From an uncultured Candidatus Saccharimonas sp. (lineage in GTDB: Bacteria; Patescibacteriota; Saccharimonadia; Saccharimonadales; Saccharimonadaceae), in NCBI GenBank assembly GCA_964513425.1, contig CAZEME010000001.1, positions 3,062-67,061 of the forward strand: DNA of 64,000 nucleotides, given 5' to 3'. The stretch's first letter is position 1. Every line of letters starts with the position of its first letter. The notes below the pieces were generated by a model that was not told the DNA's origin, searched no databases, and worked only from the letters and a program-made list of their open reading frames with translations. A program made the position numbers and the translations under genes. Shown here piece after piece: positions 809 to 17,181 of the stretch.

Positions 809-3800
809 TTATATCTTTCTACTAGAAATATCAAAAAACTTATTAAAGAATGCTGTTAACTTATCCAAGACTGTTTCTCGTTTCTTGCCTCGGCTTTGAT
901 CAGCTGAAAAACGTGACACAGGTGGCAAAATCTTAGTAATTGCAGTTCCGCTAGTTTGGACTCCTCCATCACGAAACGCACTATCAATAAAGCTATAAGT
1001 CTCATCACGATCAAGATTTTCATCAGCAATAATCTTATTTAATTCCTCAATCTTTTTTGTATCAACAAATGACTGCCAATTATCATCAACGACTGAACCT
1101 ACATCTAATGAATTTATGAATTGCTCAATAAGATCTTTCTTGTTACGAAGTTCAACACTTGAATCTATGGCTTTATTAATATCAACTAACAATTCTTTAT
1201 CCTCTTGATTACCTGCATGATATTTGCGAATTAGTTCAAGAATGTAATCAATATTTATTTCAACTTGTTTGATTAATTCCATTTCAAAGACGATATCATC
1301 ATTAATATTTTCCTTGTCGCTATCTGCAATATCCCTAAACTCATCATAGAAATTAATATACATACTATGATAATCTTGAACATCACGTTCGGATAAAATT
1401 TCTTTTCCAAGAAAATCATCAAATGTAGTCAATATATTTCTAACCTTTAATATTGCACCGTAAAGATTAATGAATTCTTTCTTATTTTGTTCGCCAATAA
1501 TTTGCTCATTTACTGGGAATCGTGAAAGTAATTCGTTCACAAGATCAGTGTATCCACGAATTTGCTTACCTTCAGATTCATAACCCTCATAATATTCTTT
1601 GAAAGATTTCAGCAATACAATACCGCTTGCTTCTTTATCGCCAAATAACGCAATTGAATCATTTGTTGCTTTTTCAAGATTACGGAAAGTCACAATGTTG
1701 CCGAATGTCTTAATAGAATTAAGTATTCGATTTGTACGTGAGTATGCTTGTAATAAACCGTGCATTCGCAAATTCTTATCAACCCATAATGTGTTCAATG
1801 TTGTTGCATCAAAACCAGTCAAAAACATATTAACAACTATCAACAAATCGATCTCGCGATTCTTCATTCGTAATGAAACATCTTTATAGTAATTCTGAAA
1901 TTTATCAGATGATGTATCATAATTCGTAGTAAACATTTTGTTATAGTCTTTCATCGCAGAATCTAGAAAATCTCGCGAACTAGCATCAAGACCATCAGTG
2001 TTCTCAGAATTCTCATCAATTACGCCATCGAGTTCATCATCAACTTCGTTTGCACTATAACTAAAAATTGTTGCTACCTTTAAACGTGCAAGTTCTGGTA
2101 TCTCTGATTGTTGCTTCTTAAACTCTGCATAATATAACTTTGCTACTTCGATTGAACTAACTGCAAATATTGAATTAAAACCACTGAGTCGAATCTTTTC
2201 TTTTACTTCTTCAACAGCCGATCGGTCACGTGCCGAAGCTGCTTCAAATACATTAGCTAGTTTGGTAAATGCGTACGGTTTGCTGTTTCGCTTTGTCTTC
2301 TGATCAAAATGCTCACGAATATACTTAACTACGTTTGATATACGTTCAGGTGCAGCCAGAGCTTTTTCGCGGTCAATATCCCTAACCTGAGAATCATCAA
2401 CATCATCAGCCTCTCTAACAGTACGAACGTAATCGATTCGAAATGGCAAAACATTTTTATCCGTAATGGCATCAACGATAGTATAAGTGTGGAGCTTTTC
2501 ACCGAATGCTTGTTCGGTTGTTTTTATGTCCACTCTTCCGCCGCTAGATGAGTTCTTAGCAAATATCGGTGTACCCGTAAAACCAAATAAATGATAATTC
2601 TTAAAGTTTTTTGTTATTGCATGATGCATATCACCAAATTGTGAACGATGACATTCGTCAAAAATAATTGCTATGTGACTATCAAATGCCTTATGCCCTT
2701 CGTTCGATCGAATGAACTTATCAAGTTTTTGAATAGTGGTAATAATAATTCTAGCGTTTGCATCTTCAAGTTGTCTTTTTAGTTTGGCAGTGCTCGTATT
2801 GCTATTTGCAGCGCCTTTTTCAAACTTGTCATATTCTTTCATTGTTTGATAATCGAGATCTTTGCGATCAACAACAAACAAAACCTTATCTATATAAGAT
2901 AATTTACTAGCAATTTGGGCAGTCTTAAAACTTGTTAATGTCTTACCTGACCCTGTTGTATGCCAAATATAGCCACCAGCATCAATTGTTCCAAGTTTTT
3001 TATAATTTGTTGAGATCTCTATTCGATTTAGTATTCTTTCTGTTGCAACTATTTGATATGGTCGCATTGCGAGTAATAATCGGTCGCTAGTGAATACGCA
3101 ATACTTCGTTAGAATACTTAAAATTGTATGCTTTGCAAAAAATGTCTGCCCAAAATCCATTAGATCAAATATAGGTTTATTGCTTGAATCAGCCCACCAA
3201 CTTGAAAACTCAAAACTATTGCTTGTCTTTTTACTTCGCTTACTGTTATTGTCATTTGATTCTTTGATGTGCTGAAAGCGTGTAGTGTTGCTGTAGTATT
3301 TTGTGTAAGTTCCGTTACTAATTACAAACAACTGAACATATTCGAACAAACCGCTATCTGCCCAAAAACTATCTCGCTGATAACGATTTATCTGGTTAAA
3401 TGCCTCTTGTAGTGCGATGCCTCGTCGTTTCAATTCAACGTGCACAAGTGGTAGACCATTTACTAGAATCGTCACATCATAACGATTAGATCGCAAACCA
3501 TCAATTTCATATTGGTTAATGACTTGAAGACTATTATTATGAATATTCGTTTTATCGATAAGGTAAATATTCTTAACTTCGCCATTATCACGAGTTAGTA
3601 ATTGAACGTGATCTTCTTGTATCTTTGCTGTCTTTTCTTCTATGCCTTCATTTTTGTTAGCTAATTTTGTGACAAAAAATTGTTCCCATTCTATATCACT
3701 GAATTTATAATCATTTAATTTTTCAAGTTGTGTGCGTAAATTTGTAATTAAATCTGATTCGCTTGAAATTGATAAATAATCGTATGCCTGAGATTCAAGT

Positions 3801-10171: not shown

Positions 10172-10894
10172 CTATTTCAATTTATAGTATTTGTCTTTTT
10201 GCTCTCTTGTTAATTTTTCACAGGCGTAGCGGAGCATAGTGCGTGGCATAGTGCCGGCGTATTGGTCTAGAAAACTAGTTAATATTTTTTCATCAACTCT
10301 TTTACCAGCTTCTCTGAGCATCCAACCAACTGCTTTATGGATTAGGTCGTGCCTGTCGTTTAGAAGTATCTTGGCGATAGTAATAGTTGTGCTAGCATCA
10401 CCTTCCATAATGAAAGCTAGGGTGCTTATCATGGCGACTCGTTTTTTCCATAAGTTATCGCTATTGGCAAGATTAATTAGGTCTGAGCGTTCACGATTTA
10501 GATAATACTGACCAACAATATAGCCGCAAGTGACATCAATTAAATCCCAGTTGTTTATCTTTTCTTCATTCAGAGCCTTAATATATAGGCCGTAGATAGT
10601 TTGTTGATCTTTTGGGCTAGATTTTTGATAGCGGTTAGATAAAATAATTAATCCAGCCATGCGATGTTCATGGATAGGGCTGTAGATTAGTTTCTTGGTT
10701 TCAGTGATTGGTAGGTCTTTGAACTCTTTGCATAATCGCCTAGTGTCTGGGACTTTAACGCCAATAAACTCATCCCCTTCACCATATTCACCCTTTCCAG
10801 TTTTAAAAAAGCGCTGGAGATTTTTGGCGTTTTCACTGCTGGCATATATAGCTAGATTGGTTTTGAATTGTTTGGCGGTTAGATTATTTGGCAT
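10172..10894 (-). CDS. DNA alkylation repair protein (AlkD/AlkC-like HEAT-repeat glycosylase family)
   Basis: 240 aa. NLQRFFKTGKGEYGEGDEFIGVKVP and the later WMLRE motif are typical of the DNA alkylation repair enzyme family. Confidence 0.75.
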   Translation of the reverse strand: MPNNLTAKQFKTNLAIYASSENAKNLQRFFKTGKGEYGEGDEFIGVKVPDTRRLCKEFKDLPITETKKLIYSPIHEHRMAGLIILSNRYQKSSPKDQQTIYGLYIKALNEEKINNWDLIDVTCGYIVGQYYLNRERSDLINLANSDNLWKKRVAMISTLAFIMEGDASTTITIAKILLNDRHDLIHKAVGWMLREAGKRVDEKILTSFLDQYAGTMPRTMLRYACEKLTREQKDKYYKLK

Positions 10895-10900
10895 GTAGAT

Positions 10901-12142
10901 TTATTGGCGGCAAAGTTTAGCCGTATCTTTTTTATCTAATAATATATTAGCAATAATTTTTTCAATGGTTTGTGAACCAGAGGCTTTGAAGACCAATAGC
11001 TCCTCGCCTGTTAGATTGTTTTTAATGAAGTGTTGGGCATCGATAGCTTTAAAAAATCCAATTACTTGGCAATCTTTAGATTTTTTAGTTTTTAGTTTTT
11101 CCGAGATTCTTTGGTTTAATTTTGGACCAACTAGGATGATTTTTTTGAAGCCAGACTTTATTAATAAATCAGCTATTTTGTTGTATTCTTCAGATTCTTT
11201 TTCACCTAATTCCATTAAATCACCCAAGATTAACCATTTTTTGTCACTTTTTATACAGTTAATGATATTTAAAATGGCTGAGACCGATTCGTGGTTGGCG
11301 TTATAGCTGCTGTCAATTATAGTGGTTTTCTTTATACCTTTGAAAACTGAGCTACGTCCTGGTGGCATGATTAATTTTGAAAAATTATAGTCGAATTTTA
11401 AAGCTAGCTTTTTGACGATTTCAATCGTGGCAGTAATCGAGTAGAAAGTCTCGGTTGGTAGCAAGAATGGTAGTTTGTATATTTGGTTATCAATCTTAAA
11501 ATTAGTTCCCTTGAGGTCAACCTGGTAATCTTGTAACTGGCTGATTTGACTGGCCTTAATGACTTTAGCTGTAGTTCGTCTTAACTGTTTATCTATTAGA
11601 GGGTTATCACTATTAATAATCACTAGTTCAGAAGTGTTCTCTATATGGTGGCCATATTCATAGGCAATGGCTTCTTCAACAGTTTGGAACTTACCATTTT
11701 TGACTAATCTATCAAAGTTGTAGCTATGAGTCCGAGCACTACTTAGCCAAATAGTTATAGTAGGTTTTAGTAGCTTGGCTAGAAAAGCCCCTTCATGAGG
11801 CCTGTCGCAATCGGCTTCAGCCACATAGATAGATTGCTTAAAAGGTTTTTTGAAAGCTTTTAATGGAGCTAGGCTGAAAAGCTTTAGCCATTCTAACTTA
11901 GAGAATTTAATTCGGTTGATACCTAGGATGTCAAAAGGAATACCAAAGGCACTATTGGCAAAATGGGAATATCTAGCTTTTTGTTGAAGCTGAGACTCCA
12001 GTAAATGTAAGGTAGTAGTTTTACCGTTTGAGCCAGTTACAACAATTACCATAGGATGCCATAGTTTTAGTTGGATGGCAGCAAAAAATCGAAAGTAACA
12101 GGCTACTATAAAGTATAGATTTCTTTTAACTTTTTTTAACAA
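10901..12142 (-). CDS. Mur ligase family protein (MurF-like, short N terminus)
   Basis: 413 aa. It has the P-loop VVTGSNGKTTT and Mur ligase middle and C-terminal domain features (DSSYNAN). Confidence 0.65.
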   Translation of the reverse strand: MLKKVKRNLYFIVACYFRFFAAIQLKLWHPMVIVVTGSNGKTTTLHLLESQLQQKARYSHFANSAFGIPFDILGINRIKFSKLEWLKLFSLAPLKAFKKPFKQSIYVAEADCDRPHEGAFLAKLLKPTITIWLSSARTHSYNFDRLVKNGKFQTVEEAIAYEYGHHIENTSELVIINSDNPLIDKQLRRTTAKVIKASQISQLQDYQVDLKGTNFKIDNQIYKLPFLLPTETFYSITATIEIVKKLALKFDYNFSKLIMPPGRSSVFKGIKKTTIIDSSYNANHESVSAILNIINCIKSDKKWLILGDLMELGEKESEEYNKIADLLIKSGFKKIILVGPKLNQRISEKLKTKKSKDCQVIGFFKAIDAQHFIKNNLTGEELLVFKASGSQTIEKIIANILLDKKDTAKLCRQ

Positions 12143-12276
12143 AATTACTCCTTAAAACCAAATGGTAAAATAATAGACAGTCACTTAGCTTGTAACTAAA
12201 TTATACAGTAATAACAGTTATAATAAAATATTTAAATCGCTATCGCTTTAATTATTAGTAGTGCTATAGTTTAGTT

Positions 12277-13041
12277 ATGAGTAAAAAAATATCTATCAAG
12301 TGGTTACGTAATATTAACTTAATTGCCGCTGGGTTACACCTAGCTCAGGCTATAACTGTATTAATCTTAAGCAAGACTTTTAACTTGCAGATAACTGGTA
12401 ATTATCTCGCTTTTAATCCAGCCACCCAGAGCCTAGAACCAGTTACAAAATATCTATTTGATCTGTCTTTGCCGATGTTGATTGCTATCTTCCTATTTAT
12501 CTGTGCTACTGCCCATCTTATTATTGGCACAGTTTATAACAAAAAATATAATGCCGACCTTAAACTTGGTATGAACCGAGCTCGTTGGATTGAATATTCC
12601 ATGTCGGCTAGCGTGATGATGTTAGCTATTGCCCTACTGGTCGGTTTGACTGACCTAATGGGACTATTCATGCTATTCATTCTGAGTGGAGTTATGAATC
12701 TAATGGGCCTAGTAATGGAGGTTCATAACCAGACTACTAAAAAGACTAATTGGCTAAGTTATTGGATTGGTTGTCTAGCCGGTATCGTACCTTGGATAGT
12801 AGTAGCTTTCTATATGTGGCTCGGTGCTGATAATGGAGCTAAGGCACCAAACTTTGTTTATTGGATCTATGTCTCTATCTTTATATTCTTCAACTGTTTT
12901 GCTGTTAATATGATTTTGCAATACAAAAAGATTGGTCCTTGGAAAGATTATCTATTCGGTGAAAGAGTTTATATTATCTTGAGCCTAGTAGCCAAATCAC
13001 TACTAGCTTGGCAGGTTTTTGCTGGCACACTTCGTCCTTAA
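12277..13041 (+). CDS. heliorhodopsin
   Basis: 254 aa with 7 TM segments. Blocks align to heliorhodopsin 48C12: RWIEYSMSASVM, YWIGCLAGIVPW and GERVYIILSLVAKSLLAWQVFAGTL. The Schiff-base Lys (K240), counterion Glu (E106), H21 and H80 are present. Confidence 0.85.
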   Translation: MSKKISIKWLRNINLIAAGLHLAQAITVLILSKTFNLQITGNYLAFNPATQSLEPVTKYLFDLSLPMLIAIFLFICATAHLIIGTVYNKKYNADLKLGMNRARWIEYSMSASVMMLAIALLVGLTDLMGLFMLFILSGVMNLMGLVMEVHNQTTKKTNWLSYWIGCLAGIVPWIVVAFYMWLGADNGAKAPNFVYWIYVSIFIFFNCFAVNMILQYKKIGPWKDYLFGERVYIILSLVAKSLLAWQVFAGTLRP

Positions 13042-13076
13042 TCTTATACATATAAGATACCATAGTTAATCAATGT

Positions 13077-13107
13077 CACCGCTAGATAAAATCTAGCGGT
13101 GTTTCTT
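13077..13107 (+). terminator. intrinsic terminator after heliorhodopsin
   Basis: caccgctaga-taaaa-tctagcggtg (10-bp stem) followed by tttctt. Confidence 0.7.
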
Positions 13108-13470
13108 AGCATTAGCTTTTAGTAAAAACTACAATGTTTTCCTATTGACCGGCTTTAGTTGAGGCGATGTATACTATATATAGTCATGTAGGTACTGGGC
13201 AACCTTTCCACTTACAAGCTTAAATCTAAAAGCCACCATCAGTCGTCGTCGCATTGTCTTTTTTGACAATTCACCGACAACGTTAAATATATTGCTAATC
13301 TAATTAGCAAACAATAGTCATCTAGTTCTCTTTTATAGAGAAAACAGAATAATTAATAACGGTTAGTTATTCCAATCTAGATTGCTTGTGTAAAAAGCCG
13401 TTAACTGGAAAATTATTAATATTTTAACCAGTTTGTTCTAAATATATTTAACTTGTTGGAGGAAATCGTT

Positions 13471-13722
13471 ATGACAAAGACTAATATTAATCAGACAGTT
13501 CATATTACGGCTTTAGGTTTTAAAAAGAACTTAATCACCTACCCTCGTCGTATGGAGTACCAGGGAAAGACTTATAATTTTATTGATGCTGGTTTAAGAT
13601 GTTTGTTTAAATGTGGCGAACATATTGCGGAGTTTTTTACCTTATCTGACGGCCAAGCTTATTACCATTTAAGGCTTGATCGAACTAAGAATGATTGGAC
13701 ATTAATATCGATTAGCGCTTAG
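13471..13722 (+). CDS. hypothetical small protein (83 aa)
   Basis: ATG at 13471 lies 8 nt after GGAGG. The track ORF begins at an upstream TTG (13453). I recognise no family. Confidence 0.55.
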   Translation: MTKTNINQTVHITALGFKKNLITYPRRMEYQGKTYNFIDAGLRCLFKCGEHIAEFFTLSDGQAYYHLRLDRTKNDWTLISISA

Positions 13723-13762: not shown

Positions 13763-16090
13763 ATGAAAGATTTTATAGTCATTTTAAAAAGAAATTTCTT
13801 ATCGCCGATAGTTATCGCTATTTTTGTTCTGTCAGTTATATTATTAATACTTGGTGAATTTAGGGATGCTTGGTTTATATCTTCGGTTATTATGATTAAT
13901 ACTATTTTAGGTATTATTCAGGAAACTAGGGCAAGGAATAAACTAAGAAAATTAGAGCTTATGAATCTACCTCATGCTAGGAGATTAAAATCTGATGGGT
14001 CTTTTGAGAATATTTTATTTAATGAGCTAAGGGCTGGCAACAAGGTTGGCCTGGAGATCGGCGAAGAGGTGCCAGCCGACGGTATAATTATTGAGTCATC
14101 TGGCTTAGAGGTTAATGAGAGTATTTTGACTGGTGAATCGAACCCTATTAAGAAAAATAAATCAGCCAAGGTTTTAGCTGTTAGTGCAGTGGTGGCTGGT
14201 AGTGGCTTAATGTTAGTCAAGGCAGTTGGTGATAAAACAATGGCTGGTAAAATGTCTTCCTCTTTAAAACGTTATGAGCCAGAAACAACTCCTATCCAAA
14301 GATCGATTGCCAGGGCTATCACCTATTTGACTTATGGGGCGCTTGGACTAGCTGTTTTGATATTAGTGGTTTATTTCTTGTCTGGTCAGGACGCTGTCAA
14401 AATATTCAAAACAATTGCTGCTGGAGCTATAACGGTTGTGCCAGAGGGTCTACTGTTTGCTAGTACGATTCTACTGGCTTATGGTTCAATTAGACTAGCT
14501 CAGGTCAAGGTTTTGCCCCAAAAGCTGTCAGCCATTGAAGCCATGGCATTACTAGAGATTTTATGTGTTGATAAAACTGGTACTTTGACTAGCGATGAGG
14601 TCAAATTTAATGGCGTTGAATCTTTTGACAAGACTAATAAATTACCAGTTAAAGAATTGATGGCCATTATTGCTAAGGAAACTAGTGGTGGTAGTAAGAC
14701 TGGTGTAGCCATCGCTAATGGTTTAACTTTGCCAAAAGAATATGAAATAGTCGAGAACCTAGCTTTTTCTTCGGCCAGGAAATATAGCGGTGTTAGAGTC
14801 AAGCTAAATAAAAAACTTTATAGTGTTATTATGGGGGCGCCAGAATATCTTTTAAAATATACTGAGCTTGATGATTACCAGTCTAGACGTCTTAAGGATT
14901 TAACCAGTAATGGTAATCGTGTTTTGATGGCCGTGATGTTTGACGATAACCAAATGCCGTTAGCTAGCTTGAAACAAGCTAAAGTCCAGTCAATTGGCTT
15001 GGCGGTCTTAAGTAATGAATTAAGAGACGGTGTTAAGAAAACAGTTAGATATCTGCAGACTAATGAGGTTGAGATTAAGGTTATCAGCGGGGATAATCTA
15101 GAAACAGTCCAATATATTACTAAACAAGCTGGTATCAAGAATGCTGATAAGGCTTTAACTGGAGCTGAACTAGAGGAATTATCGGCTGAGGATTGGGATA
15201 GCGTAGTATCCAGTACGACCGTTTTTGCTAGGATTTTACCTGAACAAAAGCAACTTTTGATTGAAACGTTTAGTCGTCTAGGCAAATTTAGCGGTATGGT
15301 TGGTGATGGGATTAACGATGCTTTGGCTATCAAGAAAGCAGATTTTGGGGTAGCTATGTACGCTGGAGCGGCAGCTACTCGTCGAGTAGCTGATGTCGTT
15401 TTGCTAGATAATTCCTTTAATTCTTTGCCAGTTGGCATGAGACTTGGGAATAGAATTATGCAAGCTATTGAATTAATCGCTACTTTGTTCTTCCATAAGA
15501 TTAGTTATATGGTCGTTTTGTTATTATCTACTTTGGTCCTAGGTATTCCCTATCCATTTGAGCCTAGACATATTACCTTTATGAACATGTTCTTAGTTAG
15601 TATGCCGACCTTGATGTGGACTATATTTACACCACTGCCGGCCCATCGCTTATCTCCAAAATATTTCTGGAAGGATACCCTACTGGCTGTAGCACCAATT
15701 GCTGCTATGACTGGCTTAATAGTTACTCTGTCTTATATATTCTTGGATCTAATCCACCCAGGTGATGCTAGTGGAGTGGCTACTACGACAGTTATTATTG
15801 CTACTTTCTTTGGTATATATCTAGTGTTCTTGGTTTCTAAGATGTTTAATATTAGGAATAATCGTAGTGCTAAGTTGGCTAGGTTGCTTTATATCTTGGC
15901 TGTCATCTTTGTCTTATCAATTAGCTTTGGTTTTGGTTTCTCTCGTGATTTCTTCGACTTTACTACCCCAGCTTGGCGCAATTCTTTACCATTACTAATG
16001 TTAATAGTCTGTGTCAGTATTTTTCAGTGGAAAATTGCTGCTATGGCTGGAGACAGAATTAGCCGGCGACATGGTAGTCAAAAGAATTAG
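13763..16090 (+). CDS. cation-translocating P-type ATPase (E1-E2 family)
   Basis: 775 aa. It has the TGES motif (ILTGESNP), the phosphorylation site CVDKTGTLT, the hinge MVGDGINDALAIKKADFGVAM and multiple TM helices. Confidence 0.9.
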   Translation: MKDFIVILKRNFLSPIVIAIFVLSVILLILGEFRDAWFISSVIMINTILGIIQETRARNKLRKLELMNLPHARRLKSDGSFENILFNELRAGNKVGLEIGEEVPADGIIIESSGLEVNESILTGESNPIKKNKSAKVLAVSAVVAGSGLMLVKAVGDKTMAGKMSSSLKRYEPETTPIQRSIARAITYLTYGALGLAVLILVVYFLSGQDAVKIFKTIAAGAITVVPEGLLFASTILLAYGSIRLAQVKVLPQKLSAIEAMALLEILCVDKTGTLTSDEVKFNGVESFDKTNKLPVKELMAIIAKETSGGSKTGVAIANGLTLPKEYEIVENLAFSSARKYSGVRVKLNKKLYSVIMGAPEYLLKYTELDDYQSRRLKDLTSNGNRVLMAVMFDDNQMPLASLKQAKVQSIGLAVLSNELRDGVKKTVRYLQTNEVEIKVISGDNLETVQYITKQAGIKNADKALTGAELEELSAEDWDSVVSSTTVFARILPEQKQLLIETFSRLGKFSGMVGDGINDALAIKKADFGVAMYAGAAATRRVADVVLLDNSFNSLPVGMRLGNRIMQAIELIATLFFHKISYMVVLLLSTLVLGIPYPFEPRHITFMNMFLVSMPTLMWTIFTPLPAHRLSPKYFWKDTLLAVAPIAAMTGLIVTLSYIFLDLIHPGDASGVATTTVIIATFFGIYLVFLVSKMFNIRNNRSAKLARLLYILAVIFVLSISFGFGFSRDFFDFTTPAWRNSLPLLMLIVCVSIFQWKIAAMAGDRISRRHGSQKN

Positions 16091-16104
16091 TGTATAATAA
16101 GATT

Positions 16105-17181
16105 ATGAAAGTAAGAATAGAGATAGACACAAAGACATTCGTGCGGTTTTGGTTAGTAGTAATCGGTTTCATAGCAGCGGCTTTTATAATATATAGCGCC
16201 AGGGTGGCTTTAGTAATAATAGGTTTAGCAGCTTTCTTTGCTATTGCTTTGAGCTTGCCGGTTAATAGGATCGTTAATAAGCTACCGAGCAAGAGTCGTT
16301 TACTTAGTACAGCTTTAGCTTACATGGTTGTAGTGATGGCTTTAGTTGCTTTTATATCACTAGCGGTTCCGCCTATTATTCAGCAAACAGCTAAATTAGC
16401 TAGCACGGTCCCATCTCTAGTCGATACAGCAGCTAACCAGTATTCTGGCATTAATGCTTTTGTTGAGAAAAATAATTTAGAAGAGCCTTTTGAAGATGTC
16501 ATTACGGCTGTTAAAAATAGTTCAACTAGATTTGCACAAGATTTAGGGACTAATCTAATAGGTGGCATAGGATCAATCTTTTCAGTCTTACTGGCTGGCG
16601 TAATGGTTTTCTTTCTAGCTTTCTTTATGCTAGTAGAAGGTCCGGTTTGGTTGAATTATTTTTGGGGGCTTTTTAAAGATAAAAACAAAATGTCAGCTAC
16701 AAAAGGCATTGTTGAAAAGATGTATAGGGTGGTAACTAAATATTTTGCAGGTCAGGCTACGGTAGCTTTAATAGCGGCTATAGTGTCATCGTCAATGGTC
16801 ACTGTTTTTAGTTTTATATTTAATATACCTTTAAATCTTGCTATACCAACAGCTGCTATCATGTTCGTTTTATCTCTAATACCAATGTTTGGTTCAGGAA
16901 TTGGTTTAGCCATTATTACTATTGTCTTGGCTCTTAATAATTTGCAAGCGGCTATTATATACTTTTGTCTTTATATAGTTTACCAACAAATTGAGGGTAA
17001 TTTTATATCACCGAAGATTCAAGCTAAGAAGATTGATCTATCGGCTTTAGCTATCCTAATATCTATAATAGTTGGTATCTATTTGTTTGGTTTAATCGGT
17101 GGTATAATTTCTATCCCTATAGCCGGTTGTCTGAAGATTTTATTTGATTTTTATACTAATCGTTCAAAAGAATCTGTTTAA
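16105..17181 (+). CDS. AI-2E family transporter (PerM/UPF0118)
   Basis: Polytopic membrane protein with the C-terminal consensus YQQIEGNFISPKI typical of the AI-2E family. The ORF is also open from GTG at 16090. Confidence 0.78.
   Translation: MKVRIEIDTKTFVRFWLVVIGFIAAAFIIYSARVALVIIGLAAFFAIALSLPVNRIVNKLPSKSRLLSTALAYMVVVMALVAFISLAVPPIIQQTAKLASTVPSLVDTAANQYSGINAFVEKNNLEEPFEDVITAVKNSSTRFAQDLGTNLIGGIGSIFSVLLAGVMVFFLAFFMLVEGPVWLNYFWGLFKDKNKMSATKGIVEKMYRVVTKYFAGQATVALIAAIVSSSMVTVFSFIFNIPLNLAIPTAAIMFVLSLIPMFGSGIGLAIITIVLALNNLQAAIIYFCLYIVYQQIEGNFISPKIQAKKIDLSALAILISIIVGIYLFGLIGGIISIPIAGCLKILFDFYTNRSKESV

Follow-up and report, generated by a model that had tools for sequence, protein, structure and literature searches.

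What a heliorhodopsin (HeR) does for the cell that carries it is an open question, and a locus with a single such gene in a Saccharibacteria genome raises it in a simple form: where would the protein obtain its retinal, and on what would it act once it is lit? We analyzed a window of 64,000 nucleotides (positions 3,062 to 67,061 of contig CAZEME010000001.1) together with the rest of its assembly. The assembly comprises 631,202 bases in 19 contigs, is 92.5% complete and has 37% G+C, a size in keeping with the streamlined genome of which a preliminary description of this DNA had spoken. Taking the evidence together, we consider it probable that the locus encodes a canonical and functional HeR that scavenges its retinal, that works as a non-transporting light sensor on a partner protein, and that is expressed from a leaderless single-gene unit. 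With a minimal genome, a gene that is not part of an operon, and two of the three shown classes of HeR partner missing, it offers a clean test case for the function of the family.

Several parts of this setting are not new. It is already published that Saccharimonadia carry HeRs, that these have the SLVAK motif, and that Saccharibacteria rhodopsins depend on retinal from outside (PMC9166423, PMC9296517). In a survey of 1326 CPR genomes, Chiriac et al. 2022 (Microbiome 10:84, PMC9166423) found 80 HeRs in Saccharimonadia, which form clades of their own, identified SLVAK as the commonest motif of CPR HeRs, and discussed possible roles. The protein studied here shares lineage, family, and SLVAK motif with those HeRs, and there is no difference in kind between them. 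Patescibacteria were also listed among the HeR-bearing monoderm phyla by Bulzu et al. 2021 (PMC8612252), and under the NCBI pipeline the protein would already receive the name 'heliorhodopsin HeR'. As a whole, the preliminary description was thus borne out in its observation and in its reading but overrated the novelty, since the same situation had been reported in the first two studies (PMC9166423, PMC9296517). What is added here is a retinal pathway that is missing genome-wide, the finding that, of the three proven partner classes, two are absent, a quantified leaderless layout, and evidence of strong purifying selection on the gene.

Family, pocket, and topology

The protein had been described as a heliorhodopsin with a complete retinal pocket, and on this point profile, residue, structure-model, and phylogenetic evidence agree. 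The PF18761 Heliorhodopsin profile is matched from end to end (positions 1-242 of 242) with an E-value of 4.9e-96 and 321 bits against a cut-off of 26.7, and the NCBIfam equivalog NF038020, 'heliorhodopsin HeR', is matched with 329.5 bits against a cut-off of 100. The profile search, which had been named as one check that could overturn the assignment, places the protein with the heliorhodopsins and not in another 7-TM family. Among solved structures, the best matches by sequence are TaHeR (6IS6, E 8e-81) and then the actinobacterial 48C12 (E 4e-57). Homologue length fixes the start codon, since almost all of the close homologues have a length of exactly 254 aa. Of the span first proposed for the gene, 12262-13041, the end holds, but the start does not, since 12262 is the first base of the element TGcTATAGT and the coding sequence begins at 12277 (Table 1).

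Table 1 Features of the heliorhodopsin locus, with positions counted in the 64,000-nucleotide window
Feature	Position	Strand	Basis or remark
DNA_alkylation (PF08713) protein	10172-10894	-	profile match
MurF-like Mur ligase, divergent	10901-12142	-	PF08245, PF02875; TIGR01143 murF E 1e-35, below its cut-off
Extended -10 element TGcTATAGT	12262-12270	+	hexamer TATAGT 12265-12270 = -12 to -7, ends 6 nt before ATG
Heliorhodopsin (HeR) CDS	12277-13041	+	254 aa plus stop; PF18761, NF038020, and TaHeR matches
His21 codon, TM1, conserved HeR histidine	12337-12339	+	residue check; alignments
His80 codon, TM2, conserved HeR histidine	12514-12516	+	residue check; alignments
Glu106 codon (RWIE106YS), TM3, single Schiff-base counterion	12592-12594	+	equivalent to TaHeR E108 and 48C12 E107
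Lateral fenestration / carotenoid-site residues Y162, C166, G169, F205, N206, A209, also I201	12760-12903	+	mapped via TaHeR alignment
SLVAK motif, TM7	12982-12996	+	S236 = 12982-12984; retinal-binding Lys240 = 12994-12996
Intrinsic terminator: 11-bp stem, 3-nt loop, T-rich tail	13077-13108	+	36 nt after stop codon
Small orphan ORF, 83 aa	13453/13471-13722	+	ORF call; family search
P-type ATPase	13763-16090	+	profile match
AI-2E family transporter	16090-17181	+	profile match

The residues of the pocket had been read correctly from the start. A scripted check found K240 in SLVAK, E106 in RWIEYS, His21, and His80 all present, plus S236, and the codon of the Schiff-base lysine, AAA, lies exactly where it had been placed. 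In an alignment of 35 HeRs, made up of 33 distinct relatives, TaHeR, and the window protein, thirteen positions are invariant in 35/35 sequences: H21, H80, N100, W104, E106, Y107, S110, M140, G169, F205, A209, S236, and K240. H21, H80, and E106 are invariant in a second alignment as well.

An AlphaFold2 model (pLDDT 89, pTM 0.85), for which 25 sequences were aligned, predicts seven long helices and, in the first external loop, a beta-hairpin with strands 36-47 and 52-64; a long beta-hairpin in this loop is a typical HeR trait. The model fits the TaHeR structures with TM-scores of 0.92-0.95 and an rmsd of 1.4-1.7 A (0.93 on 6IS6) and 48C12 with TM-scores of 0.86-0.90, whereas those for type-1 rhodopsins reach only 0.53-0.72, at 10-17% identity. 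On the predicted inner side, formed by the N-terminus together with the even-numbered loops, there are 14 lysines and arginines, versus 3 in the other, outer loops, and from this distribution the positive-inside rule predicts an inverted topology with a cytoplasmic N-terminus. By its sequence, the protein is confirmed as a genuine, intact, and full-length canonical heliorhodopsin.

TaHeR, from Thermoplasmatales archaeon SG8-52-1 (6IS6, 7U55, 7CLJ), is 56% identical to the window protein over 247 residues and belongs to the same length class. The two have in common the Schiff-base lysine, the single glutamate counterion, both histidines, the SxxxK pattern, the fenestration residues Y/C/G/F/N/A, and an isoleucine at the position of the transporter glutamate. 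They differ in their hosts, that of the window protein being bacterial (Saccharibacteria), in belonging to separate clades, and in small indels in the TM5-TM6 loop; the window protein is known from its sequence and a model.

Retinal supply

The preliminary description had seen no retinal or carotenoid genes in the window, and the whole-genome search that it called for extends this statement to the whole 92.5%-complete genome. No match was found there to phytoene synthase (CrtB, PF00494), to CrtI-type oxidases of the phytoene desaturase type (PF01593), to lycopene cyclase (PF05834), or to the RPE65-type carotenoid oxygenase (PF03055), four profiles that had matches in 2 to 14 of 14 control genomes. 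Blh (PF15461) had no match in the genome either, but this profile matched nowhere, be it in the controls (0/14), in the sampled genomes of the same order (0/301), or in non-CPR HeR-bearing genomes (0/5). The absence of Blh is the weakest negative of the pathway set, as its profile has no positive control. Given the completeness of the assembly, the absence of the pathway from this genome is probable. Since the genome holds no route to beta-carotene, the retinal must, on this gene content, come from outside, either from the host cell or from the surroundings.

The organism of TaHeR likewise has no retinal pathway, according to literature quoted alongside PMC9296517. Jaffe et al. 2022 (PMC9296517) described Saccharibacteria type-1 rhodopsins that occur without blh and rely on external retinal, for which they proposed actinobacterial hosts as the source. 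These type-1 DTS proton-pumping rhodopsins (SacR) come from the same host phylum as the window protein and show the same reliance on outside retinal, but they are members of another rhodopsin family, lie in the membrane the other way round, and work as pumps. None was found in the present genome, which has no match to the type-1 rhodopsin profile PF01036; matches above the Pfam cut-off in 5 of the 301 genomes of the order validate this profile.

For TaHeR, the published explanation of how external retinal enters is a lateral fenestration, an idea that Jaffe et al. 2022 (PMC9296517) carried over to the type-1 rhodopsins of Saccharibacteria. The roles of TaHeR residues Y164, C168, G171, F203, N204, and A207 in the lateral opening of the retinal pocket and in the carotenoid site have been described in a preprint (bioRxiv 10.1101/2025.11.27.691015). 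Their equivalents here are Y162, C166, G169, F205, N206, and A209, all six identical, and retinal probably enters the window protein by the same path. The same residues also lend themselves to a different idea, namely, that the protein is mainly a two-chromophore light harvester in which an exogenous xanthophyll, taken up at the outward-facing fenestration, serves as a second antenna, the inverted topology and the monoderm envelope serving the capture of outside pigments. Kornilov et al. 2025 propose a carotenoid-antenna role of this kind for HeRs in general. The complete set of six carotenoid-site residues, with G169, F205, and A209 invariant in the relatives, is consistent with it, and in a genome that makes no carotenoid the pigment would be exogenous, as the model requires. 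However, the proposal comes from a preprint and is built on docking and on sequence motifs; for no HeR has carotenoid binding been demonstrated, and in TaHeR the same residues double as the retinal entry port. The model also leaves unsaid how the absorbed energy would be used, and it complements a sensor more than it replaces one. We therefore consider an antenna quite unlikely and retain, as the preferred reading, a sensor supplied with scavenged retinal.

Ion transport, partners, and neighbourhood

If the window protein works like TaHeR, as their 56% identity suggests, all-trans-retinal would form its covalent bond with Lys240, and Glu106 would be the only counterion. Judging from the homologous TaHeR and 48C12, the lit protein would most likely move no ions. 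Some HeRs do move protons (PMC9448325), and a light-driven proton transport like that of V2HeR3, through a gated channel or by an inward pump, could feed the membrane potential of a cell that would have little else to build it with and in whose genome no type-1 rhodopsin pump was found. E229 and Q215, which correspond to the proton-accepting group of V2HeR3, are conserved here, which would fit such a role. However, the transporting viral HeRs need a glutamate, E191 in V2HeR3, at a position where TaHeR has I199 (PMC9448325), and the window protein has Ile201 at this position, so that the hallmark of ion-transporting HeRs is missing. In addition, position 205 is occupied by Phe and not by the Trp of V2HeR3, and the tree places the protein on the TaHeR side and not with the viral or algal HeRs. 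For TaHeR and 48C12, no ion transport has been detected, and their outer half is hydrophobic (cited in PMC9448325). Since Ile201 and Phe205 agree with TaHeR, a non-transporting HeR, the protein is unlikely to be a pump or channel, and we regard a mechanism like that of V2HeR3 as highly improbable for this protein.

The function that we favor is that of a sensor, in which light would put the protein into a long-lived signalling state and so let it modulate another protein, again by homology with TaHeR and 48C12. Three partners of prokaryotic HeRs have been described, glutamine synthetase (AbHeR, PMC9529153), photolyase (TfHeR, PMC9769723), and the OmrDE ABC transporter (OcHeR, PMC11109279). AbHeR, TfHeR, and OcHeR belong to the same family as the window protein and have the same likely mode of action, in which the lit HeR binds and modulates a protein; they share an operon with the partner gene, whereas the window HeR is monocistronic and has no operon partner. 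Neither glutamine synthetase (PF00120, matched in 14/14 control genomes) nor photolyase (PF00875, matched in 8/14) has a match in this genome, and therefore neither can be the partner here. One PF00664 (ABC_membrane) exporter is encoded, on contig 5 and not on the HeR contig. The gene for the partner would not be expected near HeR, and it is possible that the partner is an ABC exporter encoded elsewhere in the genome or an undescribed protein.

A more general proposal, which we think unlikely, would be that the Saccharimonadales HeR acts through a partner or pathway that has yet to be described. Its grounds would be that HeR has matches in roughly three quarters of the genomes sampled from the order, forms a predicted leaderless unit of its own, and persists in a genome of about 630 kb in which glutamine synthetase and photolyase are missing. 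If true, no natural system would be simpler for finding the signalling target of a HeR than a proteome of ~600 proteins whose chromophore comes strictly from the host, and it would allow a test of whether the retinal supply of the host doubles as a host-contact cue. Because the genome is minimal, the gene stands alone, and two of the three shown partner classes are missing, the search space for a HeR partner is small, and a pull-down or a co-occurrence study in this lineage would profit from it.

The genes around HeR had been named as a Mur ligase, an alkylation repair gene, a small ORF, and a P-type ATPase, and all of them were found as described. On other contigs, the start of the Mur ligase is called 30 codons later, at ~12052 (383 aa). 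Conserved neighbours were considered as a clue to the partner in 20 related loci over +-8 kb: the alkylation-repair gene and the P-type ATPase never adjoin HeR there, and the Mur ligase does so in only one. We read no functional signal from the position of the Mur ligase and the alkylation-repair gene beside HeR, which is not conserved. The 83-aa ORF was likewise rejected as a HeR-specific partner, as its family is found in 182 of the 301 genomes of the order, including genomes that have no HeR. In most cases this family lies away from HeR; a single other genus has the two side by side.

In the nearest relatives HeR is likewise followed by the 83-aa ORF, the P-type ATPase, and the AI-2E transporter, but a DHO_dh gene lies between HeR and the ORF, and the genes upstream are different. 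No remnant of DHO_dh was found in the 410-bp spacer (13042-13452), nor is there a copy elsewhere in the genome. The block of 83-aa ORF, ATPase, and AI-2E transporter is a transcription unit separate from HeR. The next 11 kb downstream contain housekeeping genes only, with no histidine kinase or response regulator among them. From gene contexts elsewhere, Chiriac et al. 2022 (PMC9166423) suggested a link of HeRs to oxidative-stress defence; at this locus, however, there is no oxidative-stress neighbour of the kind seen in those contexts.

Transcription unit, selection, and distribution

The gene had been called apparently leaderless, a reading that is supported, at the level of sequence, by a genome-wide peak of promoter hexamers at -12 and by a spacing that is kept in orthologues. 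Upstream of the ATG we found no Shine-Dalgarno (SD) motif, and the position of the extended -10 element predicts that transcription very probably starts at the first base of the start codon, the A, or next to it, so that the mRNA would be leaderless. The promoter survey called 549 long ORFs and drew on two sets of genes whose ATG start was unambiguous, 170 operon-head and 170 intra-operon. TAnnnT starting at -12 precedes 35 of the 170 operon-head genes, versus ~8 at other positions, and 13/170 genes of the intra-operon set. In-frame stop codons (TAA/TAG) were considered as a source of the peak and ruled out, as TA[TC]nnT still gives 20 versus ~3.5; TATAAT with one mismatch allowed gives 26 versus ~4. 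When the hexamer is allowed to start at -13 to -11, it is present in 53/170 operon-head genes (~31%); the TG extension is found in 21 of these and an SD motif in only 2, and SD is used by a further 54 operon-head genes. The 3' end of the 16S rRNA, which would give the anti-SD sequence, is absent from the assembly.

The TGnTAnnnT-N6-ATG layout recurs in 23 of 33 distinct related HeR genes, a few of the others using SD instead, and in three other strains of the same species the hexamer is the consensus TATAAT. The leaderless layout is a habit of the lineage and the genome, not a peculiarity of the HeR gene, and it is useful for start-codon annotation in Saccharibacteria genomes of this kind. Between 12100 and 13500 there is one terminator-like site (0.5 expected from shuffles). 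With a promoter and a terminator of its own, both as predicted here, and a divergent upstream neighbour, the HeR gene is a monocistronic unit.

The nearest non-identical homologues of the protein are ~80% identical, and the close homologues bear the name Candidatus Saccharibacteria or Saccharimonadales. Compared with its relatives, the HeR gene has a dN of 0.12-0.17 and a saturated dS. In four other samples, contigs of this species carry a HeR gene that deviates by 1-18 nt, and all of these differences are synonymous except N192S, which lies in an external loop. In comparison with the two closest syntenic contigs, HeR shows 76-80% identity, versus 61-71% for the flanking ATPase, small ORF, and transporter. 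These comparisons indicate strong purifying selection on the HeR gene, which is clearly in use.

Of 301 genomes sampled from the same order, 228 have a match to PF18761, which exceeds the Pfam cut-off in 225; in the family to which the window belongs, only 2 of 12 genomes have one. Some relatives are MAGs of activated-sludge, groundwater, or sewage origin, and many others come from sunlit lakes and glacier-fed streams.

Such a distribution, with HeR present in most genomes of the order whatever their source, can also be read as the mark of a role that is independent of light, or of a protein whose chromophore is often missing, the gene being kept for a structural or transport-regulating function. 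The relatives from sludge, groundwater, and sewage point in this direction, as does the lack of a Blh match in any relative, found with a profile that has no positive control. However, the residues that serve retinal chemistry only (K240, S236, E106, H21, H80, W104, and the F205 pocket) are invariant across the clade, strong purifying selection is hard to explain if no chromophore is bound, and many relatives do come from the lakes and streams just named. We judge a light-independent role very unlikely and keep to the light sensor.

Phylogenetic placement had been suggested as a check, and it puts the window protein among the HeRs of Patescibacteria. In a tree of 88 HeRs, it groups with two metagenome contigs at 100% support, inside a clade of 64 Patescibacteria sequences supported at 99%; the next group is the Thermoplasmatales clade with TaHeR, linked at 81%. 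A horizontal origin within the family was also considered: the HeR of a genome of the same family (G284) groups elsewhere in the clade, but a single clade is not rejected (AU p = 0.19). The nearest relatives of the window protein include a contig from a sewage metagenome, a habitat where light may be scarce.

Promoter and operon context of the heliorhodopsin gene

The heliorhodopsin (HeR) gene of the window begins in a way that recurs throughout its genome, G000. In 53 of the 170 operon-head genes of this genome, the first genes of their transcription units, a TAnnnT motif lies upstream of the ATG, at positions −13 to −11, and in 21 of these 53 it carries the TG extension. A Shine-Dalgarno (SD) motif accompanies it in only 2 of the 53, and overall only 23% of first start codons have an SD core ahead of them. 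Judged by these sequence patterns, the TAnnnT spacing is a genome-wide leaderless signature in G000, of which the HeR start region is one example. Our literature search found no published description of a leaderless signature in Saccharibacteria.

In the closest relatives, whose HeR is 80% identical, the HeR start codon lies within a 4-nt overlap with a Bact_hydrolase (PF20603) gene, which makes HeR the second gene of an operon on these contigs (L053 and L054). This hydrolase is absent from G000. Alpha/beta hydrolases are listed as one of the recurrent groups of HeR neighbours (PMC11109279).

Coordinates of features at the HeR locus and in related contigs
Feature	Location	Strand	Remark
Leaderless signature	Window 12262-12279		HeR start region
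Bact_hydrolase/HeR overlap	L053 1420-1423; L054 1477-1480		4 nt
DHO_dh (PF01180) gene	L051 8784-9923; L053 2212-3348		In relatives
Non-coding spacer	Window 13042-13452		410 bp
Soluble orphan protein, 83 aa	Window 13471-13722	+	Directly 5' of P-type ATPase
Mur ligase	Window 10901-12142	−	Upstream of HeR

Genes flanking HeR

Downstream, the nearest relatives have a DHO_dh gene (378-379 aa) that separates HeR from a small ORF. The same place in G000 is occupied by the non-coding spacer, which holds no remnant of the DHO_dh gene, and tblastn found no copy elsewhere in this genome. The small ORF encodes an 83-aa protein with no Pfam or NCBIfam match, homologues of which occur in 182 of the 301 sampled genomes of the order, at times in two copies. 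Its position ahead of the P-type ATPase and AI-2E transporter genes is also found in the nearest relatives, and the protein may act with the ATPase, as a small subunit or a regulator.

Upstream, the Mur ligase matches murF (TIGR01143) at an E value of 1e-35 and 123 bits, far under the cut-off of 288 bits for this family, and its usual N-terminal domain was unmatched. On other contigs, gene callers placed its start 30 codons later, giving a protein of 383 aa. Strains whose HeR proteins are the same apart from one residue share only about 86% identity in the ligase (332 of 384 positions). Comparison of the HeR locus (12262-13041) with contigs of the same species from four other samples (L137-L140) revealed N192S, in the external loop between TM5 and TM6, as the sole amino-acid polymorphism of HeR. 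The −10 hexamer of its promoter reads TATAGT in two strains (the window and L139) and TATAAT in the other three.

Divergent HeR-like sequences and contig labels

An order-wide search with the Pfam Heliorhodopsin profile (PF18761) returned weak matches, with E values from 1e-5 to 1e-40, in many genomes (for example, G049, G138, G210, G170, and G040). These either replace or accompany a canonical HeR matching at about 1e-90, a sequence pattern that suggests one or more clades of divergent HeR-like paralogues in the order. Finally, HeRs on contigs labelled Gammaproteobacteria, Dormiibacterota, or Thiobacillus (L111, L114, L115, and L071, together with protein P0020) nest within Patescibacteria clades. 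As HeRs reportedly occur in monoderms only (Bulzu et al. 2021, PMC8612252), these contigs and the source of P0020 are probably mis-binned or mislabelled.
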